DNA of 64,000 nucleotides from an uncultured Actinomycetes bacterium (GTDB lineage: Bacteria; Actinomycetota; Acidimicrobiia; Acidimicrobiales; SZUA-35). The notes below the pieces were generated by a model. It saw only the letters and a program-made list of their open reading frames with translations. It had not been told where the DNA came from and did no database searches. Every line of letters starts with the position of its first letter. Positions within the stretch are counted from its first letter, which is position 1. Shown piece by piece: positions 31,884 through 46,676 of this stretch. The stretch is taken from NCBI GenBank assembly GCA_902826025.1, contig CADEDH010000003.1, forward strand, positions 21,743-85,742, read 5' to 3'. The translations under genes were made by a program, and so were the position numbers.

Positions 31884-32339
31884 ATGGCGAAGCGAGACGA
31901 CAAGCGAGAGTCGGCCAAGGGGAGCACCACCGATCTGCCGTCGACCCTGGACCGGTCGGATGAGCACGCCCAGGCCATCTGGCGGGAGACCCACGACTCG
32001 GCAGTGGAGAGCTACGGGGAGGGCGAGCGGGCCCATCGCACCGCCTTCTCCGCCCTCAAGCACAGCTACGAGAAGGTTGGCGACCACTGGGAGCCCAAGG
32101 AGCACAAGGGCCCATCGGACGCCCAGGCCGCTCGCAGCGGAGCCGCTGCCCGGCGAGGTGGTGACCGTCGGGGAGCCACGGCGGGCGGGGTCGACGCCAA
32201 CGCCACCAAGGCCCACCTGATGGACCTGGCCCGCCGCCTCGAGGTCAAGGGCCGGTCGTCGATGACCAAGCAGGAGCTGGTGGAGGCGATCGACAAGGCC
32301 AACCGCCGCGAGACTGCGGCTGCCCGCCGCGCCGGCTGA
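31884..32339 (+). CDS. ChaB-like domain protein with Rho-N-like C-terminal domain
   Basis: 151 aa. LPSTLDRSDEHAQAIWRETHDSAVESYGEGERAHRTAFSALKHSYEKVGDHW is ChaB-like. LMDLARRLEVKGRSSMTKQELVEAI is Rho_N/SAP-like. Confidence 0.65.
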   Translation: MAKRDDKRESAKGSTTDLPSTLDRSDEHAQAIWRETHDSAVESYGEGERAHRTAFSALKHSYEKVGDHWEPKEHKGPSDAQAARSGAAARRGGDRRGATAGGVDANATKAHLMDLARRLEVKGRSSMTKQELVEAIDKANRRETAAARRAG

Positions 32340-32388
32340 TCCCCTACCTGCCTCCGCCGATCAGGGGGACGGCCCCGATCCCGCCGGG

Positions 32389-32616
32389 ATGGCCACGGCG
32401 CACGATACGACCATGACCGCTCTGCTCGACACCCGCACCCCCGCCACCACCGCCCGCATGACCATCCCGCCCGCCGCGCCGGTGACGGCCAAGGGCTGGC
32501 ACGACGACCCCTGGCACCACCACGAGCTCCGCTACCACGACGGCGCCGGCTGGACCGGGCATGTCACCCACTTCGGTCCCGTCCCCTGCGCCGGCTGCCG
32601 CGGCAGCGCCCGCTGA
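32389..32616 (+). CDS. DUF2510-like small protein
   Basis: 75 aa. GWHDDPWHHHELRYHDGAGWTGHV matches the GW.DP....RYWDG..WT pattern of DUF2510. Confidence 0.5.
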   Translation: MATAHDTTMTALLDTRTPATTARMTIPPAAPVTAKGWHDDPWHHHELRYHDGAGWTGHVTHFGPVPCAGCRGSAR

Positions 32617-32684
32617 CCCGGTCGGCCTGAGCGACAGCCGCAACACGGGTCGGACCTGCGTCGCGGTCGGCGCGCTCAGCGGGA

Positions 32685-33638
32685 TCATCGCGACGCAGAA
32701 GCGGCGGCCGCGGCGGCGGCCGATCGCAGCTCGGCCACCAGCTCGGCCGGGGTCAGATCGGGGCAGCCGGCCTGGGTTCGGAACCAACGCAGGATCTCCC
32801 ACTCGCTGTCGGCCTCAGGCCCCGCCTGCAGATACCGGATCAGCTCCCGGCTCCCCGCCTGGTGGACGAAGTTCCACGTGACCGATAGCGAGTCCTCCAG
32901 CACCAGCACGTCGTGCAGCCAGCCCCGGGGGATGTAGATGAGGTCGCCGGGGTGAACCAGCCCCCGCAGGTCGGGCTCGGCCGCCAGGCGCCCCGAACCG
33001 TCGCCCCGGACATCGAGAAAGCCGCCGTAGGAGCTGGTGTCGTCACCGAGGTGGAGCTCTGCGGCCCGACCCGGTGCGTACAGCACAGCCTCCTTCACCC
33101 CGGCGAACTGGGCGACCACGGCATCGGTGCCGAACGGGTCGCGGTGGAGTCGGGTGCGGGCGCCCCGGGCCGCCACCAGGAGGCCCCGGTACGGGAAGCG
33201 ATCGGACACCGGATCACCACCGCCCACCGGTAGCACCAGGTCGTGGCGGGGCAGACAGGCCGGAGCGGCCCAGGTGTCGGCCATGCGGGCCAGGGCCTCG
33301 TCGCCCCAGGCCGCCTCCACGTCTCGCAGCCGGTTGTACCAGCGGACATAGGGGACCTCATCGCCGGGGTCGAGGAGACCCGGATCTCCCGGAACGCCAT
33401 CTCCCCTGGCGAACCAGTCGTCGAGGTAGTCGTCGAGGGTGGCGATGTCCTCCAGGTCGAACAAAGAGCCGTAGACCAGGGTGGCCAGGCCCCCGGCCCG
33501 GGCCCGGAGCCCCTGGGCCGTCCAGGCCTCCCGGTCGTAGCTGAGCCCCCGCACCACCACCGGCCGGCCGGGGGCCAGCCAGCGGCCAACGAACTCGTCG
33601 GGGCTGGGCATGTCGATCACGTCGAGTGGTGTGGTCAT
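32685..33638 (-). CDS. JmjC/cupin-8-like Fe(II)/2-oxoglutarate-type oxygenase
   Basis: The internal ATG (MTTPLDVIDMPSPDEFVGRWLAPGRPVVVRGL...) overlaps the stop of the synthetase by 4 nt. The candidate facial triad is HxD in TRLHRDPF plus His in YIPRGWLHDV. Confidence 0.75.
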   Translation of the reverse strand: MTTPLDVIDMPSPDEFVGRWLAPGRPVVVRGLSYDREAWTAQGLRARAGGLATLVYGSLFDLEDIATLDDYLDDWFARGDGVPGDPGLLDPGDEVPYVRWYNRLRDVEAAWGDEALARMADTWAAPACLPRHDLVLPVGGGDPVSDRFPYRGLLVAARGARTRLHRDPFGTDAVVAQFAGVKEAVLYAPGRAAELHLGDDTSSYGGFLDVRGDGSGRLAAEPDLRGLVHPGDLIYIPRGWLHDVLVLEDSLSVTWNFVHQAGSRELIRYLQAGPEADSEWEILRWFRTQAGCPDLTPAELVAELRSAAAAAAASASR

Positions 33639-36600
33639 GAGATCACCTGCAGTTCGTTGACAGACGAGTCGGGAAACGTGACCTGGCGCTGGCCCGCCGG
33701 TGGGGAGACCGGGCGGGCCGGGTTCCCCTGCCAATGGCCGCCCGACTCCACCGTGGTTCCCTTCATCACGAACGAGTCGGCGTCGATCACGCAGTGGTCG
33801 CCCAGCTCGGTGGCGTAGTGGACGAGGGCGGCGGGGCCCACGGTGCAGCCCGTTCCGAGGTGGACGCGGTCGGACTTGAACGTGCCGTCCTCCAGCGAGT
33901 GGGCCTGGAGCACGGCGCCGTGGTTGAGGCAGCAGTCGTCGCCGATGGCCACCAGGCCCGGCTCGGTGAGGCCGGCGCCGTCGTCGAACACCCGGGCCCC
34001 TACCTGGGCCCCCTGCAACCGCAGGAACCAGGGCTTGACCGGCGTCCCGTCGAACACCCGGAGGAAGGCGTTGTAGTTCAGCTTCCAGAAGCGCTCGTGG
34101 GCCCAGAAGCGGGGGTCGTAGAGCGAGCAGTACAGCGGCTGGACGGGCTGGAACCGCACCACGAGCCGCTCCAGGAGAACGGAGACGAGTGCGCCGCCCA
34201 CGACGGTGGTGGCAGCGGCCGCGGCCAGGGCCAGGGCCGTGGGCGCGAGGCCGGCACCGGGGCCGACCAGGTTCAGCGCCGCCGCCCCCGACCCCAGGGC
34301 CAGCACCGTCAACAGCCACCACCGAGCCAGGTACAACGCCATCGTCACCAGGTTGGACCGCAGCTTTCGGGCCAGCCGCTGTTCCAACAGGCCCGGCTGC
34401 TTGTAGAGGTCGAACAAGTGGTCCCGCTGCACCGAGCGGGGGATCTCGAACGCCGGCGATCCGAGGAGGCCCACCCCGGTGCGAACCGGGCCGTCGAGGG
34501 GGACCGCCGCCTTCGTGGCGATGAGACAGTTCGGGCCGACGGCGGCATCGGCCGGGTAGCGCACCACGTTGCCCAGGTAGGTGTCGGCCGGCACCGACAC
34601 CGCCCGGAGCCGGAACGAGGTGCCCGACACCTCCAGATTGGTCAACCGGAGCCCGTCGGACACCAGCGTGTTGCGGTTGAAGGTGCACAGGAAGGGGCTG
34701 TGATGGCGTTGGTCGACCCCGAAGTTGGACCCGGTCTGGGTGGCCTGGGACAAGTCGTAGCCCACCGCCGACAGCCAGCCGACGATCATCGCCGAGTCGC
34801 CGAAGACGGTGCACAAGAAGCGGTTGTTGCTGAAGCGGGCCAGGGCCCGGGCCGCCTGCCACCGCAGGCCGTGGAGCGGGTGCGACACCTCGGGGGCCAC
34901 CAGCGGCCGCAGCAGGCGGGGTACGACGAGCACGGTGGCGGCGGCGGTGACGAGGCTCGCCGCTTCGAGGGCCAGGGCGGCCAGACCGAGCCGCAGGGCC
35001 GTGCCCGCCGGGCCGCCGCCCGTGCCCAGCAGCGTCTCGGCCGAGAGGTCGAACCGGGCGGCCGCCGCCAGGGGGGCCAAGGAGGCAGGGAGAGTGACCA
35101 ACAGCAGCGACAGGATCTGGCCGAGGGTGAAGAGCGCCCGTTTCCGGGGTTCCACCGGTCGGGGTTCGCACCGGTCGAAGGTGGTGGCGCACGGCTCGGC
35201 CGGCGAGCCCTGCCACACCGTCCCGTCGGGCACCCGCTGGCCCGCCAGCAAGGCCGAGGCGGGGCCGAGCTGGGCCCCGGCGCCCACGGCCGTGCCCGGC
35301 GACAGCACGGTGCCGTCGCCCACCAGGGCCCCGGCGCCGATGGCTATGGGGCCGGGCCGCAGCCAACCGCCGATGGCCACGTAAGTGGCCAGCACCGCTT
35401 CGTGGCGGACTACGGCCCCGGCGCCGATCGAGACCAGGTCGGTGCACACAGGGGGTGGGGCCAGCACCACCGCCCCTGCCCCGACCCGGGTGCCGACGGC
35501 CCGCAGGTAGACGTTGTAGGCCGGAGTGCCGGCCAGCAGGACCATGGGGTTGAGGGTGACGGCCAGCCGGGCCACCCAGAACCGCAGGTAGGCGACGGTC
35601 CACAGCGGCACCGGCTCGTCCCGGAACCGGCCGACGGCCAGCCACTTGACCGCCACCAGGCCCACCACGGTGGCCAGCCACAGGCCGCCGCCGGCGGCGA
35701 CGAGCCGCAACCACGTGCCCACCGGCCCGGCCGGTTGGCCGAGGAGGCGGAAGGCCGCCAACCCGGCCATGGCCGACACCGCCAGGACCAGCAGCTGGAT
35801 CCCCACCTGGGCCACCCCCGTGGCCACATGGGCCGCTCGGCTCGGCACCCGCAGCGGGTGGGCGGGAACCGGCCCCGGATCGGCCGCCGGCGCCGGGGGC
35901 TCCGCCGACCGATCCGACCAACCGGCTGCCGCCGGCGACGCTGCCGGGGGCGGCGCCGTGTCGGTGGCCGGCGATGGTGGCAGCAAGGCGGCCAGGGCGG
36001 CGACGGTCGGATGCTGGTAGAGCTGTTTGAGGGTCAGCCGGCGGACGCCCAGCGTTGAGCGGAGCTCGGTGACGAATCGGGCCATGGTGAGCGAGTCGGC
36101 GCCCAGCTCGGCGAAGAAGTCGGCCTCCACCGACACGGCCGGCAGGTCGAGCACCTCGGCCAGGAGGCCGGCCAGGCGGGCCTCGGTCTCGGTCCTGGGC
36201 ACCACCAGGTCCACCTCGTCGGCCACGAACCGGCGGCCGGCCGGGGCGGGCAGGGCCGACCGGTCGGCCTTGCCACTGGCCAGGAGGGGGACCTCGGCGA
36301 TCGGCTCCAGCAGGGTCGGCACCATGTAGGCCGGCAGGCCCGCCCGCAGGGCGGCGTACACCGCGCCCAGGTCCATCTCCCCGCCGGACGTGGCCGGCGC
36401 CAACCAGGCGGCCAGCACCACCGAGCCGTCGGGCAGGGTGTGGGGGGCCACCACGGCGTTGCCCACCCCGGGCACGGCCCGGGCCGTCGCCTCGATCTCG
36501 CTCAGCTCGATCCGGTAGCCGCGGATCTTCACCTGGGTGTCGATCCGACCCAGGTACTCCACCTCGCCGTCGTCGGTGAGCCGGCCCAGGTCGCCGGTTC

Positions 36601-37804
36601 GGTACAGGCGTCGGCCCGGGTTGTCGGGCAGGCCCAGCACGTCGTCCACGAAGGCCGCCGCCGTCTGCTCGGGCCGGTTGAGGTACCCCTCGGCCACCCC
36701 GATGCCGCCCACGGTGATCTCCCCCACCTCGCCCCGGGGAACCGGACGGGCACCGCCGTCGGGATCGAGCAGGGCCACGGTGTAGGTGGGCAGGGGGCGT
36801 CCGATCGTGATCGGCCGCCCCGGAATCAGCTCGCCCCAGGTGGCGCTGACCGTGGTTTCGGTGGGTCCGTACAGGTTGAGCACCCGGCGCCCGGGCTCGA
36901 ACCACGGCCCGATCACGTCGGCCGGGCAGGCCTCCCCCGACACCAGCAGCAGGCGGAGCGCCGGCAGCGGGGGCCGCACCGTGGCCAGCACGGTGGGCAC
37001 GGTGGCCAGGGCCGTGATCCGCTGCTCGTCGAGGAACTGGCGCAGGTCGTCGGCCACCAGCTGGGCTCCGGGCGGAGCCGGCACCAGGGTGGCCCCGGCC
37101 ACCAGGGGAACCCAGATCTCCTCGAAGGCGTAGTCGAAGGCGATCGTGAGCCCCTGGTAGACCCGGTCGTCGGGACGGTAGCCGTAGAGGCCGGCGGCCA
37201 CCCGTACGAAGCTCACGATGCTCGACTGCCGGATCGGTACCCCCTTCGGCTGGCCGGTTGAGCCCGAGGTGTAGATCACGTAGCACTCGGGATCGGGGTC
37301 GGACGACGCCGAGGTGTATCCCCCACGGGAGCGGCGGGCGATCTCGGGCTGGGCCTGATCGAGGGCGACCACGGGCACGCCGGCCGATTCGAACCGCCCG
37401 GTGAGCTCCGAGACCGTCAGCACAGCGGCCGCCCCGCTGTCGGCCAGCAGGAACCGGAGCCGCTCGGGTGGGAACGACGCGTCGAGGGGCACCCAGGACA
37501 CCCCGATGCGAGACAGCGCCAGCACCGTGGCGTAGGCGTCGACCGACCGCCCGAGCAGCAGGGCCACCCGCTGGCCGGGGGTGATGCCGGCGTCGGTCAG
37601 GTGGTGGGCCAGCTGGTGGGAACGGCCCCGCAGCTCGGCGAAGCTGTATCCGATGCCGCCGTAGTCGACGGCCAGGCGGCGTCGGGCGCGCCGGCCCAGA
37701 GCGGCGCAGGTCTGGTCGAACAGGTCGTGTAACCGCTCACCGGCGAACCATGCCGTCGGGTGGTCGGGGTCGCCAACGAGCACCGACACCGACTCGCCGT
37801 TCAC
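33635..37804 (-). CDS. Pls-type (epsilon-poly-lysine-synthetase-like) membrane-embedded single-module NRPS: A-T-(TM pair + hexapeptide-repeat domain)x3
   Basis: The GTG start (VNGESVSVLVGDPD...) overlaps the aminotransferase stop (GTGA). Adenylation motifs seen: YVIYTSGSTGQPKGV, NLYGPTETT, YRTGDLG, GRIDTQVKIRGYRIELSEIE and SGKADR. The carrier domain is FFAELGADSLTMARF. Three soluble blocks rich in [LIV]G hexapeptide-like repeats follow, each flanked by hydrophobic helices. I saw no canonical C (HHxxxDG) or TE (GxSxG) domain. 1389 aa. Confidence 0.85.
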   Translation of the reverse strand: MNGESVSVLVGDPDHPTAWFAGERLHDLFDQTCAALGRRARRRLAVDYGGIGYSFAELRGRSHQLAHHLTDAGITPGQRVALLLGRSVDAYATVLALSRIGVSWVPLDASFPPERLRFLLADSGAAAVLTVSELTGRFESAGVPVVALDQAQPEIARRSRGGYTSASSDPDPECYVIYTSGSTGQPKGVPIRQSSIVSFVRVAAGLYGYRPDDRVYQGLTIAFDYAFEEIWVPLVAGATLVPAPPGAQLVADDLRQFLDEQRITALATVPTVLATVRPPLPALRLLLVSGEACPADVIGPWFEPGRRVLNLYGPTETTVSATWGELIPGRPITIGRPLPTYTVALLDPDGGARPVPRGEVGEITVGGIGVAEGYLNRPEQTAAAFVDDVLGLPDNPGRRLYRTGDLGRLTDDGEVEYLGRIDTQVKIRGYRIELSEIEATARAVPGVGNAVVAPHTLPDGSVVLAAWLAPATSGGEMDLGAVYAALRAGLPAYMVPTLLEPIAEVPLLASGKADRSALPAPAGRRFVADEVDLVVPRTETEARLAGLLAEVLDLPAVSVEADFFAELGADSLTMARFVTELRSTLGVRRLTLKQLYQHPTVAALAALLPPSPATDTAPPPAASPAAAGWSDRSAEPPAPAADPGPVPAHPLRVPSRAAHVATGVAQVGIQLLVLAVSAMAGLAAFRLLGQPAGPVGTWLRLVAAGGGLWLATVVGLVAVKWLAVGRFRDEPVPLWTVAYLRFWVARLAVTLNPMVLLAGTPAYNVYLRAVGTRVGAGAVVLAPPPVCTDLVSIGAGAVVRHEAVLATYVAIGGWLRPGPIAIGAGALVGDGTVLSPGTAVGAGAQLGPASALLAGQRVPDGTVWQGSPAEPCATTFDRCEPRPVEPRKRALFTLGQILSLLLVTLPASLAPLAAAARFDLSAETLLGTGGGPAGTALRLGLAALALEAASLVTAAATVLVVPRLLRPLVAPEVSHPLHGLRWQAARALARFSNNRFLCTVFGDSAMIVGWLSAVGYDLSQATQTGSNFGVDQRHHSPFLCTFNRNTLVSDGLRLTNLEVSGTSFRLRAVSVPADTYLGNVVRYPADAAVGPNCLIATKAAVPLDGPVRTGVGLLGSPAFEIPRSVQRDHLFDLYKQPGLLEQRLARKLRSNLVTMALYLARWWLLTVLALGSGAAALNLVGPGAGLAPTALALAAAAATTVVGGALVSVLLERLVVRFQPVQPLYCSLYDPRFWAHERFWKLNYNAFLRVFDGTPVKPWFLRLQGAQVGARVFDDGAGLTEPGLVAIGDDCCLNHGAVLQAHSLEDGTFKSDRVHLGTGCTVGPAALVHYATELGDHCVIDADSFVMKGTTVESGGHWQGNPARPVSPPAGQRQVTFPDSSVNELQVIS

Positions 37805-39090
37805 GCCGCCACCTCCCCGCATCCGGTGCCCACCAGTGGGCCGGCGGCCGTGCGGTGCACGACCTCGGCCACGATGCTCATGCCCTCGGCCAGCTGGACA
37901 TCGGGTGTGGTGAGGGGGGCCAGCACCTTCACCACCTGGTCGCGGGGTCCTGCCGTCTCGATCACCAGGCCCCGCTGGAAGCAGCCGGCGGTCACCGCCG
38001 CCGCCACCTCGGTGGTGCCCACGTCGAGTCCGGCCATCAGGCCCCGGCCCTTCACCCGCCACCCGGGGACCAGGCCGGCCAGCGGTTCGAGGACCGAGCG
38101 CACCAAGCGGGCCCGGCGGTCGACGTCGAGAGTGAGACGATCGTCGGACCAGAACTTCTCCAGAGCCACGGCGGCGGTCACGAAGGCCAGGTTGTTGCCC
38201 CGGAAGGTGCCGTTGTGCTCGCCCGGGCGCCACTGGTCGAGCTCGGGCCGCAGCAGCACCAGCGCCATGGGCAGCCCGAACCCGGAGATCGACTTGGACA
38301 GGGTGACAAGGTCGGGCACCACCCCGGTGCCCTCGAAGCTGAAGAACGGCCCGGTGCGCCCGCACCCGGCCTGGATGTCGTCCACGATCAGCAGGGCACC
38401 CACCCGGCGGGCCAGGTCGGCGATCCGCCGCAGCCAACCGGCCGAGGCCGGATTGAGGCCGCCCTCGCCCTGCACCACCTCCACCAGGAAGGCGGCGGGA
38501 GGGTCGAATCCGCTCGACGGGTCGTCGAGCACGGCCTCCAGCACGGCGGCGGTGTCGACGTCGGGGCCGAGGTAGCCGTCGTAGAAGGCCCGGGTGACGC
38601 CGCTCAGGGGCAGCGGACCGGAGGCGCCCCGGTGGTGGCTGTTCCCGGTGGCGGCCAGGGCGCCGAGGGTGACACCGTGGAACCCGTTGGTGAAGGCCAC
38701 CACGGTGGAGCGCCCGGTCACCTTTCGGGCCAGTTTGATCGCCGCCTCCACCGCGTTGGTGCCGGTGGGCCCGGTGAACTGCACCCGGTAGTCGAGGCCT
38801 CGGGGGCGGAGGATCAGCCGGTCGATCCGATCGAGGAACCGGTCCTTGGCCTCGGTCCGCAGGTCGAGGCCGTGGGTGATGCCCCCGGCGGTCAGGTGGG
38901 CCACGAGGGCGTCGGCCATGTCGGGGTCGTTGTGGCCGTAGTTGAGGGCGGAGCAACCGGCCAGGAAGTCGAGGTAGCGACGGCCGGTGTGGTCGAACAG
39001 CTCGCTGCCGCGGGCCGAGGTGAAGGTGGTGGGGAAGGTGCGGCAGTAGCTACGCACCTCCGACTCGATGGTCGGCTCGACGATGGTCAT
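37801..39090 (-). CDS. diaminobutyrate--2-oxoglutarate transaminase (class III PLP aminotransferase, EctB/Dat/PvdH type)
   Basis: 429 aa. The N-terminus ESEVRSYCRTFPTTFTSARGSELFDHTGRRYLDFLAGCSALNYGHN is typical of DABA aminotransferases. The PLP-Lys context is VTLSKSISGFGLPMA. A strong AGGAGG RBS is present. Confidence 0.85.
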   Translation of the reverse strand: MTIVEPTIESEVRSYCRTFPTTFTSARGSELFDHTGRRYLDFLAGCSALNYGHNDPDMADALVAHLTAGGITHGLDLRTEAKDRFLDRIDRLILRPRGLDYRVQFTGPTGTNAVEAAIKLARKVTGRSTVVAFTNGFHGVTLGALAATGNSHHRGASGPLPLSGVTRAFYDGYLGPDVDTAAVLEAVLDDPSSGFDPPAAFLVEVVQGEGGLNPASAGWLRRIADLARRVGALLIVDDIQAGCGRTGPFFSFEGTGVVPDLVTLSKSISGFGLPMALVLLRPELDQWRPGEHNGTFRGNNLAFVTAAVALEKFWSDDRLTLDVDRRARLVRSVLEPLAGLVPGWRVKGRGLMAGLDVGTTEVAAAVTAGCFQRGLVIETAGPRDQVVKVLAPLTTPDVQLAEGMSIVAEVVHRTAAGPLVGTGCGEVAA

Positions 39091-39190
39091 GGGAGCGCCT
39101 CCTGGGCCGGAACGGTGCGAAGAGCCCCTTCATCGTCGGTTGCCGTCGGCTAAGACGGTGCTAAGCCCGCCCGAAGGAGGGGTCAGCAAT

Positions 39191-39211
39191 GGTCGTAGTA
39201 CCGGGTCGTAG
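39191..39211. promoter_or_regulatory. direct repeat GGTCGTAG-n5-GGTCGTAG upstream of the aminotransferase-NRPS operon
   Basis: Two perfect 8-mers with 13-bp periodicity lie about 100-120 bp upstream of the operon start codon at 39090, inside the 323-bp intergenic region. Confidence 0.3.
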
Positions 39212-39413
39212 ACCCTGCACCGCCAACCTGCGCCCGTGACGATCCGGACCGAGTTGCTGGGCACCGAGATCACCTGGATCGAGGGCCGTCACCGTACTGG
39301 GGCAGCTTCAACATGGGCGGCCGGGAGATGGGCGATGCCCTGGCCCCTCTGATCCCCGGCGGGCGCTACCACTGCGCCCAGGTGGGCCACTGGGTCCGGG
39401 GCGGCTCCCGGTC

Positions 39414-40334
39414 TCAGCTCCGAGGCCGGATGACGGCCAGCACGCACAGACCGGTGCTGGTGGCGCAGGGGCTGAGCGAGATCTCGACCGGTAGCTCGAC
39501 GCCATCGGACCGGAGGGCCACCAGATCGAGACCGGAGGCCACCGACCGGGGCACCGGATCGTCCACGTAGCGCTGGCGGCTGCGCATGTGATCCTCCCGC
39601 CAGCGGTGCGGTAGCAGCACCTCGATCGGGCGGCCGACGAGCTGGGCCGGCGTGTAGCCGAGCAGCTCGCACAGCCGCTCGTTGCACTGCAGGATCGTGC
39701 CGGTGCCGTCGACGGCCACGATGCCCTCGGACCCCGCCCCCAGCAGGGCCGACGCCATCTCGTCGGTCAGGAGGTGGCGGACGCCGTCGCCCGCCGCCCG
39801 AGCTTCGAAGATCCGTGAGAGGGCGAGAGCAGCGACGTCGGCCAGGGTACGGATGTAGTCGCGCTCGGGCTCGTCGAACACCGGTGGGCGGGAGAACGAC
39901 AGGGTGAACGCACCGAAGGGCCGGCCCCGGCCGAGCAGGGGGATGACCACCCAGCCCTGCGACGCCGGCGAGGCGAGGCGAAGGTCGGCGAAGCGTCGCA
40001 ACCCCTCCTCCCGGTTGGGGATCCAGATCTCCTCCGCCTCCCGGATCGCCTGGCATGCCGGGTTGGCCCGATCCAGGGGCATCGACTCGCGACCGGCGTC
40101 CTGCTCCATGCGCCGGATCGACCGGGCCGTCGTTCCCGCCGCCGCCACGGAGCGCACAACATCGCCGTCGACGAACAGCAGACCTACACCGGAGGCGTTC
40201 ATCCCGGCCATGCCCTGCTGTACCACGATCCGCGTGATCTCCTCCGGCCCGATCTCGGAGGTGAAAGCCCGGGCCATCATGGCCAGGCGCTCGTAGCGGT
40301 CTGCCCGCAAGTCGGCGTTCGAGGTCACGGGCAC
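39414..40334 (-). CDS. GAF-PAS sensor protein without recognisable output domain
   Basis: 306 aa. The N-terminal half is GAF-like (GVGLLFVDGDVV...WVVIPLLGRGRPFGAFTLSF). The C-terminal part is a PAS fold (GIVAVDGTGTILQCNERLCELLGYTPAQLVGRPIEVLLP...GVELPVEISLSP). Confidence 0.75.
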   Translation of the reverse strand: MPVTSNADLRADRYERLAMMARAFTSEIGPEEITRIVVQQGMAGMNASGVGLLFVDGDVVRSVAAAGTTARSIRRMEQDAGRESMPLDRANPACQAIREAEEIWIPNREEGLRRFADLRLASPASQGWVVIPLLGRGRPFGAFTLSFSRPPVFDEPERDYIRTLADVAALALSRIFEARAAGDGVRHLLTDEMASALLGAGSEGIVAVDGTGTILQCNERLCELLGYTPAQLVGRPIEVLLPHRWREDHMRSRQRYVDDPVPRSVASGLDLVALRSDGVELPVEISLSPCATSTGLCVLAVIRPRS

Positions 40335-40403
40335 CAGTATCGCAGGGACGAAGCCCGGCGGGTGGGAACAGGTAGCCCCCGCTGCTCGGCTGCGACCCGA
40401 CTG

Positions 40404-40745
40404 TCAGGACACCAGGCGGTGGACCACCGACAGGTTCCACGCCACCACGGCCAGGTAGTAGGTCAGGGCCAGATTGACCAGCAGCCTTGCCTCCCGGGAG
40501 CGGGCCGGGGCGTCGAGGATGCGTCGGCTCAGCAGAGCCAGCACCACCGCCTTCACCGCCACCACCAGCCACCATCGGTGCACGATGGGGGCCAGCACCG
40601 GGTTTCCCTCCGACCCCCCGAGCATCAGGAACCACACCGTGGTGGCCACGTCGGCCCCGTTCAGCACAGCCAGACCGCCGATGCCCCGCAGCCGCTGGGC
40701 CCGCACCCGCTCCACCAGATCCACGATGGCGTGGAGGGCCCCCAC
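40404..40745 (-). CDS. small polytopic membrane protein (DUF5658-like)
   Basis: Hydrophobic, with AVLNGADVATTVWFLMLGGSEGNPVLAPIV, which is the D..T......E.NP motif as I recall it for DUF5658. The start is uncertain: GTG at 40745 or GTG at 40820. Confidence 0.5.
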   Translation of the reverse strand: MGALHAIVDLVERVRAQRLRGIGGLAVLNGADVATTVWFLMLGGSEGNPVLAPIVHRWWLVVAVKAVVLALLSRRILDAPARSREARLLVNLALTYYLAVVAWNLSVVHRLVS

Positions 40746-40827
40746 CAGCTCACGGTGCTCGTCGTCCCGCCCCGCCCGCCGGACCGGGGGTGGCGGCCAG
40801 TTGCGGGGCTGTCCGGTCACGATCCGA

Positions 40828-43332
40828 TCACGGGCCGGCCTCGGCCAGCAGGAGGCCAGACGGGGCGGCACCCGCACCGGTCCACCACCGCTCGAGATCG
40901 GGCGCCGGCACGGGCCGGCTGAACAGATAGCCCTGGCCCAGCTTGCACACCATCTGTTCGAGCATCACCCGGGCGGTCACCGTCTCGACGCCTTCCGCCA
41001 CCACGTCGAGCTTCAAGCTCCGGCCCAGGTCGACGATCGCTCGCACCACGGTCTCGGCCGTGCGGTCCACCCCGAGGCCCTGGGTGAACGAGCGGTCGAT
41101 CTTCAGCTTGTCGAGGGGGAGGCTGGTGAGGTGACTGAGCGACGAGTGGCCGGTGCCGAAGTCGTCGATGGCCACCCGCATGTCCATGGCCCGGAGCTGG
41201 GCCATCACCGAGGCGGCGAGGCCGGCGTTGGCCATGATCGTGGTCTCGGTCAGCTCCACCTCCAACAGGTGGGCCGGGAGGCCGGCCGTGGCCAGCATGC
41301 GCCGGATGCGGGGCACGAGGTCGGCCTCGGTCAGGTTCCGGGCCGACACGTTCACCGCCACCCGCAGCGGGTGCCCGGCGCGGTACCAGGCGGCGGCCTG
41401 ATCGATGGCCAGCTCCAGCACCCGGTTGGTCAGGGGGTGGATGAGGTCGGTCCGCTCCGCCACCTCCACGAACTCGGCCGGCGGCACGGCGCCCCGTCCG
41501 GGATCGTCCCACCGGGCCAGGGCCTCCACCGCCACCAGGCGGCCCGTGGCCAGGTCGATCTGGGGCTGGTAGTGGAGCCGGATACCGCCGGCGTCGATGG
41601 CCGAGCGGAGGCGGGCCGCCATGGCCAGACGCTTCGGGCTGTAGTGATCGCGGTCGGCGGCGTACACCTCCACCCCGGTGTGGGCGGTCTTGGCGTTGTA
41701 CATGGCCACGTCGGCCCGGCGCAGCAGCTCGTCGCCGTCGAGCGGGGCGGTGGCCAGGGCGATGCCGATGCTGGCGTCGATGTCCACGTCGACCGACTGC
41801 ACGGCGTAGGGCGCCCGCAGGTGGTCGAGCACGAGGCGGGCCCGGTCGGCGGCGTCGATCTCACCCCGGGCCATGATCTGGAGCACGAACTCGTCGCCCC
41901 CCAGCCGGGCCAGCAGCTCGCCGCCCCGCAACACCGGCTGGAGGCGCTTGCCGATCTCCATGAGCAGCTTGTCGCCGCAGGCGTGGCCCAGGGTGTCGTT
42001 GACCTCCTTGAACCGCTCCAGGTCGATGAGCAGTACCGCCACCTCGGTGCCGGGGGCCACCGCCTCCAGATGACGGGTGAACAGCGTGCGGTTGGCCAGA
42101 CCGGTGAGCGGGTCGTGGGTGGCCTGGAACTCGAGGCTGGTCGACTCGGCCCGGAGCTCCTCGATCAGGGTCAGGTTCCGGGCGGCCACGGCGGCGTGGG
42201 CGCACAGGGTGCCGAAGATGCGGACGTCGTCGGCGTCGAAGTCCCGCACCGCACCGGCCCGGTCGCCCACCCCCAGGACGAGGAGGCTGCCATCGGCCAG
42301 GTGCAGGGGGCCGACGATGGCCTGGCCGACGCCGAGGGCGGCCAGCTCGTCGCCCCGCGGCCCGGCCGAACCGATCAGCTCCGGGCCGCCCCGGCTCACC
42401 CGAGCCGCCGTCGCCGTGTCGAAGGAGGTGAGGTCGGCCACCGTGGCTCCGCCGTGGCTGGTGAGCAGCGTGCGCCGACCCTCCGCCGGGCGGCACAGCC
42501 ATGCCTGCTCGGCGTGCATGACGTCGGCCACCCGGGCCAGCAGCCGACGGTCGAAGTCGCCGGTGGCCGTCTCGCGGCCCAGCTCCCGGGCGAAGCTGTC
42601 GAGGCGGAGCATGCTCCGGTAGCGGTTGGCCAGGCGGGCGAAGCGGTGGGTCAGGGCGACGGCGAACACGCCGAGGGGGATCAGCAGCCACACTTCGGCC
42701 GACGCGGCGTGCAGCTCGGTCGCCACGTGCAAGGCGTAGGACGAGTCGATGGCGGCCACCACCAGGGGCAGCCACACCCCCGACAGGAACGACCGGTCCC
42801 ACGAACGCTGGAACAGGCTGATGGCGATCGTCACCACCAGGCCGCCGATCAGGTCGGCCCCCACCACAGCCAGGGCCGTCACCGGCCACGCCCCCAGGCC
42901 CAGCCCCGGCGGTAGGCCCAGGGCGGCCATCAGCAGGCCCGCCAACAGGATCTCGATGGTGTGGGAAGTCAGGTTGACGGCCAACTTGGTGCCGCCCTGA
43001 CGGTGCACGCCGGCCAGCACCAGCAACGACGACACCACCCGGAGCAGCACAACGATCTGGAGCGGCAACAGCAGCAGCCCGATCACCAGCGGTACCGAGG
43101 TGAAGGTGAAGGTATGGGTGTCGTTGCGGAGCTCGATCTCCACCGACCACAGCTCGGCCCCGGCGTAGAGGGCCAGCACCAGCACCGCCACCACCCACGA
43201 TCCGATCGCCGGCACCATCGGGGCTGGCGGGGCGATCCCCAGGAGCAGCCCGCACAACGCCACCAGCACGGTGGCGAAGAGCTGGACGTGCAGAGGTCCG
43301 GCGTCGGTGGATCGAGGTGCCATGAGCCGCAC
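40828..43332 (-). CDS. membrane-bound GGDEF-EAL (diguanylate cyclase/phosphodiesterase) signalling protein
   Basis: 834 aa. The N-terminal domain has about 8 TM helices, followed by a GAF-like linker region. GGDEF elements are RLGGDEFVL and the upstream DLERFKEVNDTLGH. EAL elements are VEALARW, NVSARNL, ELTET and DDFGTGHSSLS. Confidence 0.9.
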   Translation of the reverse strand: MRLMAPRSTDAGPLHVQLFATVLVALCGLLLGIAPPAPMVPAIGSWVVAVLVLALYAGAELWSVEIELRNDTHTFTFTSVPLVIGLLLLPLQIVVLLRVVSSLLVLAGVHRQGGTKLAVNLTSHTIEILLAGLLMAALGLPPGLGLGAWPVTALAVVGADLIGGLVVTIAISLFQRSWDRSFLSGVWLPLVVAAIDSSYALHVATELHAASAEVWLLIPLGVFAVALTHRFARLANRYRSMLRLDSFARELGRETATGDFDRRLLARVADVMHAEQAWLCRPAEGRRTLLTSHGGATVADLTSFDTATAARVSRGGPELIGSAGPRGDELAALGVGQAIVGPLHLADGSLLVLGVGDRAGAVRDFDADDVRIFGTLCAHAAVAARNLTLIEELRAESTSLEFQATHDPLTGLANRTLFTRHLEAVAPGTEVAVLLIDLERFKEVNDTLGHACGDKLLMEIGKRLQPVLRGGELLARLGGDEFVLQIMARGEIDAADRARLVLDHLRAPYAVQSVDVDIDASIGIALATAPLDGDELLRRADVAMYNAKTAHTGVEVYAADRDHYSPKRLAMAARLRSAIDAGGIRLHYQPQIDLATGRLVAVEALARWDDPGRGAVPPAEFVEVAERTDLIHPLTNRVLELAIDQAAAWYRAGHPLRVAVNVSARNLTEADLVPRIRRMLATAGLPAHLLEVELTETTIMANAGLAASVMAQLRAMDMRVAIDDFGTGHSSLSHLTSLPLDKLKIDRSFTQGLGVDRTAETVVRAIVDLGRSLKLDVVAEGVETVTARVMLEQMVCKLGQGYLFSRPVPAPDLERWWTGAGAAPSGLLLAEAGP

Positions 43333-43490: not shown

Positions 43491-45026
43491 GTGAACGACC
43501 GCTCGCCCGGCATGCTCCCCGACGGCTGGCGGTGGTCGCCCCCCCGACGCCGGGGGCCCCTCAGCGGCGTGGTGCTGGCTGTGCTGCTGGTGCTGTCGGC
43601 CGGCGTGGCCAGCAACACCTACGATCCCACCGCCGCCAACTACGGCACCAGCCTGAAGACGGCGTTGAACAGCGGATCGTCGTTCACCGAGTGGAACTCG
43701 ACCCGCAACATCCTTCGTACCGAGGTGAAGAGGGCGATCGGGATCCCGCTGACCGCCGCCCTGACCGGCGGCCCCACCGGCAAGGGCATCGACGTGGCCG
43801 TGATCGACACCGGCGTGGCTCCGGTGAGATACCTCGACTCGGCCGAGGCCGTGGTCAACGGGCCCGACCTGTCTCTCGACCGCCAGCTGGGGTTGCCCAC
43901 CGCGGTGGACGCCTATGGCCACGGCACCCATCTGGCCGGCATCATCGCCGGGCGGGACGCCGGGGTGGCCCCCGGCTCCCGGATCGTGAACCTGAAGGTG
44001 GGAGCGGCCGATGGGGCGGTGGACGTGTCACAGGTGATCGCCGCCATCGACTGGGTGGTGACCCACCGGGCCGACCCCGGCTTCAACATCCGGGTCATCA
44101 ACCTGGCCTACGGCACCGACAGCACGCAGAGCTACCTCAACAGCCCCCTCACCCACGCCGTCGAGTCGGCGTGGCGGGCCGGGATCGTGGTGGTGGTGGC
44201 CTCCGGGAACAGCGGCGGGGCGTTGGCCATGCCGGCCACCGATCCCTTCGTGCTCACGGTCGGGGCGGCCGACATCAACGATCCGCTGCAGACCAGCGAC
44301 GACGTGGTGGCCCCCTACTCGGCCGTGGGCACCACCGCCCGGGGGGTCGACCTGCTCGCTCCCGGCACCTCGATCACGAGCTTGCGGGTGCCGGGCGGCT
44401 ACGTCGACACCGCCTACCCCGAGTCGCGCTTCAACTTCGCCGGGACCACCTATGCCAAAGGGTCCGGCACCTCCCAGGCCGCCGCCGTGGTCTCCGGAGT
44501 GGTGGCCCTGGTGCTCCAGGCTCATCCGGAGATGAACCCCGATCAGGTGAAGGCGCTGCTCAAGAGCACGGCCCGGCCTCTGGCCGGCGCCCCGGCCGAC
44601 GCCCAGGGGGCGGGCCTGATCGATGTGGCCGGCGCCTTGGCGGCCAAGGTGCCGTCGGCCAGCAGCGTCAAGCAGCGGTGGAAGGCGTCCACCGGCACGG
44701 GCCCGCTCGAGGCGTCCCGGGGCGACGCCCACCTGGTGGCCGACGACGGCACCGTGCTGGCCGGCGAGATCGATCTGCTGGGCCAGCCGTGGAAGGGGTC
44801 GATCTGGGCCCCGCTGTCCACCACCGGCACGGCGTGGAAGGGCGGCACCTGGAACGGCAACGTGTGGGCCGGCACCGACTTCGAGCCGTCACTGACCGTG
44901 GACGGGGTGGTCTGGACCGGCCGGACCTGGCGCAGCGCCACCTGGACCGGCCGCACCTGGCGGGCCGACCTGTGGCTCGGTCATACCTGGTACGGGCGGA
45001 CCTGGCGCTCCGACGGCTGGGCCTAG
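43491..45026 (+). CDS. secreted S8 (subtilisin-family) serine peptidase with Trp-rich C-terminal repeats
   Basis: 511 aa. It has a signal/TM segment (VVLAVLLVLSAGVAS) and the catalytic triad contexts VAVIDTGV, HGTHLAGIIAG and GTSQAAAVVSG. The C-terminal 80 aa contain repeated TW/VW motifs. The start is GTG or the ATG 21 nt downstream. Confidence 0.9.
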   Translation: MNDRSPGMLPDGWRWSPPRRRGPLSGVVLAVLLVLSAGVASNTYDPTAANYGTSLKTALNSGSSFTEWNSTRNILRTEVKRAIGIPLTAALTGGPTGKGIDVAVIDTGVAPVRYLDSAEAVVNGPDLSLDRQLGLPTAVDAYGHGTHLAGIIAGRDAGVAPGSRIVNLKVGAADGAVDVSQVIAAIDWVVTHRADPGFNIRVINLAYGTDSTQSYLNSPLTHAVESAWRAGIVVVVASGNSGGALAMPATDPFVLTVGAADINDPLQTSDDVVAPYSAVGTTARGVDLLAPGTSITSLRVPGGYVDTAYPESRFNFAGTTYAKGSGTSQAAAVVSGVVALVLQAHPEMNPDQVKALLKSTARPLAGAPADAQGAGLIDVAGALAAKVPSASSVKQRWKASTGTGPLEASRGDAHLVADDGTVLAGEIDLLGQPWKGSIWAPLSTTGTAWKGGTWNGNVWAGTDFEPSLTVDGVVWTGRTWRSATWTGRTWRADLWLGHTWYGRTWRSDGWA

Positions 45027-45056
45027 GTCGCCGTAGGCAACTACCCTCTTCCGATC

Positions 45057-46676
45057 ATGACTACTGAGGAACGCCACCACGAGGTCATCGTTCTGGGGGC
45101 CGGGGTGTCCGGCATCTACCAGATCAAGAAGCTGGTCGATCTGGGGATCGACGCCATCGTGCTCGAGGGCGACGAAGACCTGGGCGGCACCTGGTACCGC
45201 AACCGCTATCCCGGGGCCCGATTCGACTCCGAGAGCTACACCTACGGCTACTCGTTCTCGAAGGAGCTGCTCGACGAGTGGCACTGGAGCGAACGCTTCT
45301 CGCCCCAGCCCGAGAACCTGCGGTACCTGAACCATGTGGCCGACAAGTTCGACCTTCGGCGCCACATGCGCTTCGACTGCCGGGTCGAGACCATGACCTG
45401 GAACGAAGCCGAGCGCCAGTGGCGCCTCGATCTGACCGACGGCACGAGCTACACGGCCCGGTTCGTGATCACCAGCCTCGGCCCGCTGTCGGCCCCCACC
45501 CTGCCTCGCTACGAGGGGATGGACGAGTTCCAGGGTCTGGCTTTTCACACCTGGGCCTGGCCCAAGGAGCCGGTGGAGCTGGCGGGCAAGCGGGTGGGCG
45601 TGATCGGCACGGGGGCCACCGGGATCCAGGTCATCGCCGAGATCGCCGACAAGGTGGCCGACCTCACTGTGTTCCAGCGGCGGCCCAACTGGAGCACGCC
45701 GCTCAACAACTCGCCGATCTCGGCCGAGGAGATGGACCAGATCCGGGCCCGCTACGACGAGATCTTCGACAACTGCTCCAAGTCACCAGGCGGGTTCGAG
45801 CACGTGCCCGACCGCCGCGGGTTCTGGAACCTCACGGCCGAGGAGCGCCGGGCGTTCTGGGACGAGCTGTACGCCCAGCCCGGGTTCGCCATCCTGGCCG
45901 GCAACTTCATGGAGATCTTCCTCGACGAGGAGGCCAACCGGGAGGTTTCGGAGTACATCGCCGACCGGATCCGCCAGCGGGTGACCGACCCGGTGGTGGC
46001 CGAGAAGCTGATCCCCAAGGATCACGGCTTCGGCGGGCAGCGCCTGCCGCTGGAGACCCGGTACTTCGAGGCCTACAACCGGGACAACGTGCACCTGGTG
46101 AGCCTGCAGGACACGCCGATCGAGCGGTTCACCCCCACCGGCATCCAGACCACAGCCGGCCATCACGACCTCGACATCATCGTGTACGCCACCGGGTTCG
46201 ACGCCATCACCGGCGCCTACGACCGCATCGACATCCGCGGCGTCGGCGGCCAGACCCTGCGCGACAAGTGGAGCGACGGCCCGTCCACGTTCTACGGCGT
46301 GCTGACCACCGGGTTCCCCAACCTGTTCATGGTGGCCGGGCCCCAGAGCGTGTCGGGTTCGACCAACTTCCCCCGGGCCATCGAGGGCGGGGTCGACTGG
46401 GTCACCGGGCTGCTCCAGCACGCTCGGGACGCCGGCCGGACCCGGGTCGAGGCCGAGGCCGACGCCGAGGAGGAGTGGGTCCGAGAGGTGGTGAAAGCCC
46501 ATGAGCGGATGCTGTTCCGCCGCTCCAAGGGCTGGTTCACCGGCTACAACTCCAACGTGGCCGGTCACCAGGAGGGCAAGATCCGATACCAGGCGTACTT
46601 CGGCGGCGCTCCCAAGTACAACGCCATGGCCAACCAGGTGGTGGCCGACGGTTACCGGGGCGTCGCTCTGAGCTGA
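45057..46676 (+). CDS. Baeyer-Villiger monooxygenase (second paralogue)
   Basis: 539 aa. Motifs seen: VLGAGVSGIY, GGTWYRNRYPGARFD, the fingerprint FQGLAFHTWAWP and VIGTGATGIQ. Confidence 0.9.
   Translation: MTTEERHHEVIVLGAGVSGIYQIKKLVDLGIDAIVLEGDEDLGGTWYRNRYPGARFDSESYTYGYSFSKELLDEWHWSERFSPQPENLRYLNHVADKFDLRRHMRFDCRVETMTWNEAERQWRLDLTDGTSYTARFVITSLGPLSAPTLPRYEGMDEFQGLAFHTWAWPKEPVELAGKRVGVIGTGATGIQVIAEIADKVADLTVFQRRPNWSTPLNNSPISAEEMDQIRARYDEIFDNCSKSPGGFEHVPDRRGFWNLTAEERRAFWDELYAQPGFAILAGNFMEIFLDEEANREVSEYIADRIRQRVTDPVVAEKLIPKDHGFGGQRLPLETRYFEAYNRDNVHLVSLQDTPIERFTPTGIQTTAGHHDLDIIVYATGFDAITGAYDRIDIRGVGGQTLRDKWSDGPSTFYGVLTTGFPNLFMVAGPQSVSGSTNFPRAIEGGVDWVTGLLQHARDAGRTRVEAEADAEEEWVREVVKAHERMLFRRSKGWFTGYNSNVAGHQEGKIRYQAYFGGAPKYNAMANQVVADGYRGVALS

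Follow-up and report, generated by a model that had tools for sequence, protein, structure and literature searches.

A candidate three-gene operon for a cationic, most likely hydroxylated, diaminobutyrate homopoly(amino acid)

Cationic homopoly(amino acid)s attract practical interest for use as preservatives, antivirals and cell-penetrating carriers. To our knowledge, every known member (poly-Lys, poly-Orn, poly-Dab, poly-Dap and poly-beta-Lys) consists of diamino acids that carry no modification. The locus considered here lies in the window (the whole 64-kb stretch of DNA that was analysed, to which all positions refer) and combines a putative L-2,4-diaminobutyrate (Dab) transaminase, a Pls-type synthetase and a JmjC/Cupin_8 oxygenase. 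It raises the question of what an oxygenase would contribute to a pathway for poly-Dab. Judged from sequence, there is somewhat better than an even chance that these genes form a self-contained operon for a cationic Dab homopoly(amino acid), most likely a hydroxylated one.

The open reading frames of the three genes are present on the minus strand at 37801-39090 (gene 1, 429 aa), 33635-37804 (gene 2, 1389 aa) and 32685-33638 (gene 3, 317 aa). The original prediction had described them as joined by start/stop overlaps, and re-reading of both junctions bears this out: the stop of gene 1 and the GTG start of gene 2 share GTGA at 37801-37804 (GCG GCG TGA / GTG AAC), while the stop of gene 2 and the ATG start of gene 3 share ATGA at 33635-33638 (TCA TGA / ATG ACC). 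A ribosome-binding site, AGGAGG, is located at 39098-39103 on the same strand, 7 nt upstream of the gene 1 ATG. Third-position GC is about 0.93 (0.935 for gene 1), 0.93 and 0.87 for genes 1, 2 and 3, respectively, and exceeds that of the antisense shadow ORFs (0.70-0.75); the three minus-strand frames are therefore taken as the coding frames. A scan of 32200-39500 for promoters and terminators found none, a result that is uninformative at the 72% GC of this actinobacterial genome.

Synteny across related genomes had been proposed as a check and is observed. About 19 other genomes, drawn from Acidimicrobiia, Alpha- and Gammaproteobacteria (such as Roseovarius aestuarii and Crenothrix polyspora), carry the same operon with unchanged gene order and tight junctions. 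The nearest named genome is the Acidimicrobiales MAG GCA_041394285.1. In 15 related loci the junctions were measured; with few exceptions they are -4, -7 or a few tens of nt, and the -4 junction between genes 1 and 2 recurs in 10 of the 14 loci measured for it. Since order and tight junctions recur in this manner, the arrangement is not due to chance. No further gene is conserved with the operon across 19 loci; at 10 of them an Sfp-type phosphopantetheinyl transferase (PPTase) is added, and Roseovarius aestuarii has a PPTase adjacent to its operon. The window had been described as devoid of a PPTase, and a homologue search throughout its 64 kb likewise found none.

The first of the three genes is the most readily assigned. 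It matches PRK09264 at 611.3 bits (curated cut-off 438) and the TIGR02407 ectB equivalog at 573.2 bits (cut-off 552.2) in NCBIfam, along with Pfam Aminotran_3 (PLP-dependent, class III). With both NCBIfam models matched above their curated cut-offs, the proposed identity as a diaminobutyrate-2-oxoglutarate transaminase holds, and by homology gene 1 is an EctB-type Dab transaminase. A role in ectoine synthesis was considered and ruled out: the gene does not lie in an ectABC cluster, no ectA- or ectC-like partner is conserved, the neighbours of the operon are unrelated across the 19 loci and only the three operon genes travel together. By this genomic context, the enzyme is EctB-like yet outside an ectoine pathway.

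Gene 2 opens with a single module, in which an adenylation domain (aa 39-518, 36251-37690; Pfam AMP-binding, with TIGR01733 at aa 54-452) is followed by a peptidyl carrier domain with a GADS phosphopantetheine site (aa 543-608, 35981-36178; Pfam PP-binding, 7e-14). The remainder is a Pls/PosA terminal region (aa 665-1363, 33716-35812) with the order TM1-2, C1, TM3-4, C2, TM5-6, C3. A hydropathy scan, which is the sole basis of this topology, places six transmembrane segments at aa 660-690, 699-725, 890-918, 939-969, 1152-1182 and 1184-1216, that is, in three pairs (660-725, 890-969 and 1152-1216) bracketing three soluble domains. Pfam yields only AMP-binding, PP-binding, Hexapep (aa 822-848) and AMP-binding_C, with neither a Condensation nor a Thioesterase domain. 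A profile search with the Pls/PosA-family model had been suggested, and TIGR02353 matches at 534.7 bits (cut-off 423.1) over model positions 2-695 of 695. The module, the three membrane-flanked domains and the lack of condensation and thioesterase domains thus stand as originally described, and by every sequence-level feature gene 2 belongs to the Pls/PosA family. The full-length TIGR02353 match and the Pls topology, together with the lack of any conserved acceptor or scaffold gene nearby, speak against a short oligomer, or transfer of Dab to another amine acceptor, in place of a long homopolymer. Such a product is improbable, even though sequence cannot tell chain length and, according to PMC10522769, PosA gives only 7-12-mers in vitro and some members of the family have products that are not known.

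The substrate of gene 2 can be predicted from its adenylation-domain code, which was read by alignment at positions anchored on the published PosA/CHPA alignment and compared with the reference codes of PMC10522769 (suppl. Table 2). Residues 224, 225, 228, 267, 287, 289, 311, 319, 320 and 512 give DYEALSLVSK. This code keeps the Asp at position 1 and Glu at position 3 that constitute the rule for diamino acids (PMC10522769) and bind the two amines in the Pls/PosA family, while position 2, which relates to chain length, is a bulky Tyr as against Phe in the Dab and Dap enzymes. All codes of gene 2 and its best 120 relatives fall within the group D[FY]E.[LIM]S.V[TS]K, which includes experimentally characterised L-Dab and D-Dab polymer synthetases, and most operon orthologues carry DFECLSAVTK, the code of a characterised poly-L-Dab synthetase. 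Dab, named as the likely substrate in the original prediction, is upheld by these codes, and by alignment the gene 2 code belongs to the poly-Dab group. The portrayal of the family as an actinomycete system proved too narrow: PosA comes from Acinetobacter, the three-gene operon is mostly proteobacterial and the gene 2 branch consists mostly of proteobacteria and Acidimicrobiia. Monophyly of the cupin-linked synthetases was also considered and holds only in part, as the smallest neighbour-joining clade with all of them also contains operons with a multicopper oxidase or an unrelated third gene.

Gene 3 matches Pfam Cupin_8 and JmjC_2 above gathering scores. Its H165-x-D167...H242 motif and K182 are invariant in 29 homologues and align with the metal and 2-oxoglutarate ligands of JMJD5. 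The AlphaFold model (pLDDT 90) has JMJD6, JMJD5, TYW5 and FIH as its nearest PDB folds, with JMJD7 ranking lower, and a PDB fold search found no close bacterial relative among the solved structures. From sequence motifs and model, gene 3 is a JmjC/Cupin_8 Fe(II)/2-oxoglutarate oxygenase with the double-stranded beta-helix of this group. The fold relatives comprise a lysyl hydroxylase (JMJD6) and hydroxylases of Arg C3 (JMJD5), Asn C3 (FIH) and Lys C3 (JMJD7), and gene context and fold together suggest that the cupin is most likely a Dab 3-hydroxylase. The usual substrates of JmjC hydroxylases in this clade are protein residues, or a tRNA base in the case of TYW5, and not free amino acids, which counts against hydroxylation of the free amino acid by gene 3. 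Orphan cupins of the gene 3 type (44-47% identity), away from any transaminase or NRPS, occur in some Rhizobiaceae and count against a role dedicated to Dab.

Such orphan copies in housekeeping contexts agree with the view that the operon makes ordinary gamma-poly-L-Dab while the cupin serves elsewhere, for example in modification of cellular proteins, regulation or immunity. So do the specificity codes identical to that of the L-Dab enzyme and the close synthetase relatives that work with other third genes or with none. This view is nonetheless unlikely, for the translational coupling of cupin and synthetase is conserved across phyla, the adjacency of the cupin to the Dab transaminase is constant, and the cupin is tied to Dab-type adenylation domains: these are found in 30 of the 31 loci where a cupin of 44% identity or more has any adenylation domain within 10 kb.

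Further evidence for a Dab-directed oxygenase comes from multimodular NRPSs. Beside those with Dab-type modules, the cupin directly follows an EctB equivalog and, in Lysobacter enzymogenes, shares a 4-nt overlap with it. An assignment of the Lysobacter locus to the WAP-8294A cluster, with a transaminase supplying ornithine, was considered and rejected, since the terminal modules are Ser-type and Dab-type instead of Orn and N-Me-Val and the transaminase is an EctB equivalog. In Pseudoalteromonas ostreae hOe-66, the transaminase and cupin pair precedes an NRPS that opens with Dab-type and then Thr-type modules, an order that, as read from sequence, is compatible with the make-up of alterins, whose residues include Dab, Dhb and three beta-OH-Dab. 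The genus is known to make beta-hydroxy-Dab lipopeptides (alterins and ogipeptins), and the occurrence there of a like pair serving Dab-module NRPS clusters strengthens the idea of a hydroxylated polycation. Against an assignment of the beta-OH-Dab hydroxylation to the gene 3-type cupin, the alterin-type and several other clusters also hold a second, different Cupin_8 gene. The NRPS code DIWELTADDK is provisionally taken here to be a Dab code; a literature search found no printed source for it, and only the related code DVWQMIGDDK is stated to be specific for beta-OH-Dab. Beta-hydroxy-Dab is also known from odilorhabdins, whose OdlB is an experimentally shown Dab hydroxylase. Among the best 120 matches of the cupin profile search, none is named as a Xenorhabdus or Photorhabdus cupin or as OdlB, and the literature searched describes neither the accessory genes of odilorhabdins nor the residue composition of turnercyclamycin.

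The conserved adjacency of EctB and cupin also bears on when the oxygenase would act. Should the synthetase activate plain L-Dab and the cupin later hydroxylate carrier-bound Dab or the nascent or finished polymer, a partly hydroxylated poly-Dab would result; this accords with the plain L-Dab code of most orthologues and with the peptidyl substrates of the enzymes nearest to the cupin in structure. Pls-type products, however, probably emerge outside the membrane, as established for epsilon-poly-lysine, and would there lie beyond a soluble cytoplasmic enzyme. Moreover, the pairing is kept in clusters with quite different synthetases, so a shared monomer fits better than a shared peptide substrate. 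Late hydroxylation is therefore given a minor, though not negligible, likelihood.

Under the preferred reading of a hydroxylated Dab polymer, the EctB-type transaminase would convert aspartate-4-semialdehyde and glutamate to L-Dab and 2-oxoglutarate, as its equivalog-level homology suggests. The by-product 2-oxoglutarate may then be used by the JmjC oxygenase which, with Fe(II) and O2, would hydroxylate Dab, either as the free amino acid or bound to the carrier domain. The likely position is C3, giving beta-hydroxy-Dab. By family membership, the Pls-type synthetase would adenylate the monomer and load it onto its own carrier domain, presumably activated by a PPTase encoded elsewhere. The three membrane-anchored C-terminal domains would join the monomers iteratively via the side-chain gamma-amine, with no condensation or thioesterase domain, and the polycation would leave the cell. 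The hydroxy-Dab step is weakened by the code of most cupin-linked synthetases, which is exactly that of the plain L-Dab enzyme, and by a pocket with no visible adaptation to a hydroxyl group, although modules for beta-hydroxy-Asn are likewise Asn-coded. The most specific form of the proposal, in which a mobile three-gene unit makes poly(3-hydroxy-Dab), with the 2-oxoglutarate of the transaminase feeding a JmjC hydroxylase that acts on the free amino acid, is advanced tentatively and at a little under even chance. Such a polymer would be the first cationic homopoly(amino acid) known to be tailored in nature, and the unit would be spread among Acidimicrobiia, Alpha- and Gammaproteobacteria, cultured marine strains included.

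If true, a hydroxylated member would open up a new polymer chemistry, adding hydrogen bonds and changing both charge density and protease stability, and would show that Pls-type enzymes accept tailored monomers. Furthermore, it would provide a function for a JmjC family that is widespread in bacteria and also supplies antibiotic NRPS pathways in which the rare residue beta-hydroxy-Dab is used. With a span of only 6.4 kb and cultured carriers such as Roseovarius aestuarii KCTC 22174, the operon allows the prediction to be tested at low cost.

In comparison with known systems, gene 3 shares the fold, the HxD...H iron triad and the 2-oxoglutarate-binding Lys of the eukaryotic JMJD5, JMJD6, JMJD7, FIH and TYW5, but is only 16-20% identical to them over structural alignments, and their substrates are proteins or tRNA. 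Parallels are also found in the beta-hydroxy-Dab NRPS clusters: in P. ostreae hOe-66 and Pseudoalteromonas sp. HM-SA03, an EctB-type transaminase adjoins a gene 3-type cupin (44-46% identical) next to a Dab-module NRPS, and for a Photorhabdus NRPS cluster a JmjC gene and a DABA transaminase gene are both recorded, as in the window operon. In these clusters the building block enters a multimodular lipopeptide or linear peptide, whereas in the window operon it would enter a one-module polymerase.

Among the polymer synthetases, the epsilon-poly-L-lysine synthetase Pls and the delta-poly-L-ornithine synthetase PosA resemble gene 2 in architecture, in the six-TM/three-domain topology and in the Asp/Glu pair of the code. 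Pls uses Lys (DAESIGTVVK) and PosA uses Orn (DMEHNGTVSK), both drawn from primary metabolism, while the gene 2 code is of the Dab type; precursor or tailoring genes with either are not described in the literature searched. The gamma-poly-L-Dab synthetase of Streptomyces celluloflavus (BCD58482.1) likewise has a single A-PCP module and a TM-anchored terminal region. Its DFECLSAVTK is the code of most operon orthologues, and DYEALSLVSK of the window differs from it at four of ten positions. Identity between gene 2 and its named actinomycete relatives is 42-50%. Gene 2 differs from the S. celluloflavus enzyme in its translational coupling to a JmjC oxygenase and in its mostly proteobacterial and Acidimicrobiia branch. 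A coupled JmjC oxygenase, and hence a hydroxylated polycation, is not described in the literature searched; the original view of this oxygenase as a new partner agrees with its absence from the Pdd cluster (PMC8225329) and with the PosA survey (PMC10522769), where no cupin is mentioned. The polymer class and the dedicated supply of Dab are already known from the poly-D-Dab system PddA-D of Streptoalloteichus hindustanus (PMC8225329), a cluster with racemase, transaminase and Asp kinase, in which a Pls-type synthetase is accompanied by the DABA transaminase PddC, as here. Gene order differs, and the window operon contains neither the coupled DapF-like Dab racemase nor the Asp kinase (PddD) that characterise the Pdd type. 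Nevertheless, PddB, which tailors the monomer and is translationally coupled to the poly-Dab synthetase of that cluster, is a precedent for gene 3, the tailoring enzyme being a DapF-like racemase in the Pdd cluster and a JmjC oxygenase in the window operon.

The three genes lie on the minus strand of a region of about 72% G+C and encode a 2,4-diaminobutyrate (Dab) transaminase (gene 1, 37801-39090, 429 aa, ATG start), a Pls-type synthetase (gene 2, 33635-37804, 1389 aa, GTG start) and a JmjC/Cupin_8 oxygenase (gene 3, 32685-33638, 317 aa, ATG start). The 4-nt start/stop overlaps claimed in the original prediction can be read in the sequence (GTGA between genes 1 and 2, ATGA between genes 2 and 3), and AGGAGG stands 5' of the gene 1 ATG. 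GC3 values are 0.93, 0.93 and 0.87 in the frames of genes 1, 2 and 3, and the long antisense ORFs opposite the operon have a shadow-like composition, as judged from third-position G+C. The genes on either side are functionally unrelated: GAF-PAS, DUF5658 and GGDEF-EAL genes upstream (39414-43332, minus), and ChaB/Rho_N and ABC transporter genes downstream, on the strand opposite to the operon. The upstream block shares the strand of the operon and begins 323 bp from gene 1; since it is kept in the closest relative only, it probably lies outside the unit. Beyond it, a subtilase S8 gene (43491-45026, plus) and a flavin monooxygenase gene with Lys/Orn N-monooxygenase-like matches (45027-46676, plus) adjoin with zero gap; the subtilase gene is syntenic in a related Acidimicrobiales MAG, whose locus (L007) stops inside it, so that the comparison covers the subtilase only.

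Gene 1 exceeds the curated cut-offs of the NCBIfam diaminobutyrate:2-oxoglutarate transaminase models, including the EctB equivalog. In gene 2, an adenylation (A) domain is joined by a carrier domain bearing a GADS site, and in a search with the NCBI profile the C-terminal region gave a full-length match to TIGR02353, "Pls/PosA family" (535 bits, cut-off 423). No condensation or thioesterase domain was detected in domain-model scans, while three hydrophobic segment pairs, setting apart three soluble domains, appeared in a hydropathy scan, the topology described for epsilon-poly-lysine synthetase. Thus, both the transaminase identity and the Pls-type architecture originally proposed, with its A-T module and membrane-flanked domains, are borne out. 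Among the homologues, some proteins are longer and carry additional domains: P0222 has a fused ACPS-type phosphopantetheinyl transferase (PPTase) domain (PF01648), P0145 and P0153 an extra PF05857 domain, and P0178 and P0180 span 1767-1807 aa.

The closest named relative, an Acidimicrobiales MAG, has identical synteny with 81-89% protein identity. A cupin-profile scan of one genome per species yielded 80 loci, in 19 of which a Pls-type synthetase gene stands immediately before the cupin gene; the gene order is invariant across these operon loci, and the transaminase gene precedes the synthetase in 18 of them (L031 being without it), which answers the question of synteny in relatives. Junction lengths were measured in 15 loci and are, with few exceptions, -4, -7 or some tens of nt, and no other gene of the window is co-conserved with the operon. 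The hosts include MAGs of Ilumatobacteraceae and other Actinomycetota, as well as Filomicrobium, many alphaproteobacterial MAGs, Roseovarius aestuarii KCTC 22174, Rhizobiaceae and Crenothrix polyspora, so the family is not confined to the actinomycete setting assumed earlier. Furthermore, 10 of the 19 loci (L009:3662-4429, L015:10958-11662, L036:10887-11618 and seven others) have an Sfp/EntD-type PPTase gene next to the operon, usually in convergent orientation to the cupin gene. As had been stated for the window, no PPTase homologue was found in its 64 kb; carrier-domain activation must therefore come from elsewhere in the genome. Six related alphaproteobacterial loci (for example, L016:11834-13186) carry a Porin_4 outer-membrane porin gene just 3' of the operon.

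The monomer of the synthetase was addressed through its ten specificity positions, anchored on the sequence alignment and the table of codes published by Patel and Gulick (PMC10522769). In the Pls/PosA family, the Asp of position 1 and the Glu of position 3 hold the two amines of the monomer, and position 2 determines chain length, being Ala in Lys enzymes, Met in Orn enzymes and Phe in those for Dab and 2,3-diaminopropionate (Dap) (PMC10522769). The gene 2 code, DYEALSLVSK, retains both acidic residues and has a bulky aromatic at position 2. The pattern D[FY]E.[LIM]S.V[TS]K fits all 119 readable codes among the 120 nearest relatives of gene 2, and most synthetases of the same operon type have DFECLSAVTK, exactly as in the characterised Streptomyces celluloflavus synthetase that makes L-Dab polymer. 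On the strength of the family code and this identity, the predicted monomer is Dab or a compound of the same size, in agreement with the original prediction.

Gene 3 is a Cupin_8/JmjC protein (Pfam). Across 29 aligned homologues, H165-x-D167, K182 and H242 never vary, and they correspond to the iron triad (H165/D167/H242) and the 2-oxoglutarate-binding lysine of JMJD5. The AlphaFold model of gene 3, built on the same alignment, is confident (pLDDT 90, pTM 0.90), with JMJD6, JMJD5, TYW5 and FIH as top structural matches; a structure search of the PDB gave no close bacterial match.

A link between this cupin and Dab also emerges from a second context, where homologues with 44-56% identity to gene 3 directly follow an EctB-equivalog transaminase gene beside giant multimodular NRPSs (Lysobacter enzymogenes, other Lysobacteraceae, Thermomonas, Teredinibacter turnerae, Pseudoalteromonas and others); in L. 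enzymogenes the transaminase and cupin genes share a 4-nt overlap. The module code DIWE[LM]TADDK, which we take to be the proteobacterial Dab code, recurs in these NRPSs. The closely similar DVWQMIGDDK is given in print as a beta-hydroxy-Dab code. Of the 40 loci whose cupin shares 44% or more identity with gene 3, an A domain lies within 10 kb in 31, and 30 of these include one of Dab type (either kind), as against about 4% of A domains activating Dab (86/2051) in a published survey (PMC12283262), a comparison that carries no formal probability as the loci are mutually related. Beta-hydroxy-Dab is a rare residue, reported only from odilorhabdins, ogipeptins and alterins, the latter two being Pseudoalteromonas products. 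In Pseudoalteromonas ostreae hOe-66, genes for EctB, the gene 3-type cupin, a second cupin, Asp kinase and an ABC transporter precede an NRPS whose modules 1 and 2 are Dab-type and Thr-type, a predicted organisation that would fit an alterin-like peptide with Dab and dehydrobutyrine residues. Further, Iyer and colleagues described a Photorhabdus NRPS cluster with an FIH/TYW5-clade JmjC gene and a DABA transaminase gene, and in Xenorhabdus NRPS products the conversion of Dab to beta-hydroxy-Dab is carried out by the accessory gene odlB. The second cupin belongs to a distinct Cupin_8/JmjC family found next to or near the gene 3-type cupin in multimodular NRPS clusters (L034:10957-11829, L032:10957-11826, L005:18555-19487, L039 and several Tenacibaculum and Aquimarina loci) and absent from the three-gene operons; in alterin-type clusters it may also be a candidate beta-hydroxy-Dab hydroxylase. 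Orphan gene 3-type cupins (44-47% identity; Rhizobiaceae and Lentilitoribacter) occur in L025, L027, L033, L045 and L055, with no transaminase or NRPS gene within 10 kb; some in Rhizobiaceae lie near secA, that of L055 (10004-10906) between a YkuD-domain gene and secA.

In the proposed pathway, the transaminase would form L-Dab with release of 2-oxoglutarate, the cupin would consume 2-oxoglutarate and O2 in hydroxylating Dab, most likely at C3, and the synthetase would adenylate and tether the monomer and polymerise it via the gamma-amine. Hydroxylases of this JmjC clade usually act on residues within proteins (TYW5 on a tRNA base), and hydroxylation of carrier-bound Dab or of the polymer must therefore be taken seriously as an alternative; most cupin-linked synthetases have the L-Dab-identical code, without adaptation to a hydroxylated monomer. 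The position after the synthetase looks, from gene content, like a variable tailoring slot: next to Dab-type Pls synthetases it is occupied by the cupin in most relatives, by a multicopper oxidase in L088 (8275-9834) and by an unrelated protein overlapping the synthetase stop in L089 (7838-8677), and it is empty in Amycolatopsis lexingtonensis (L090:3736-10372), where translational coupling joins Asp kinase, synthetase and transaminase.

Neither the Pls/PosA class nor poly-Dab products are new, and a dedicated Dab transaminase likewise has precedent. In the literature searched, no description was found of a JmjC oxygenase coupled to a Pls/PosA-type synthetase, in keeping with the novelty originally claimed, nor of a cationic homopolymer bearing hydroxyl groups or of the unit's broad occurrence outside actinomycetes. 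The unit is easily tested and holds solid interest for natural-product and biopolymer specialists. Its closest precedent is the poly-D-Dab system, in which a Pls-type synthetase and a dedicated transaminase are likewise combined, with a monomer-modifying racemase translationally coupled to the synthetase (PMC8225329).
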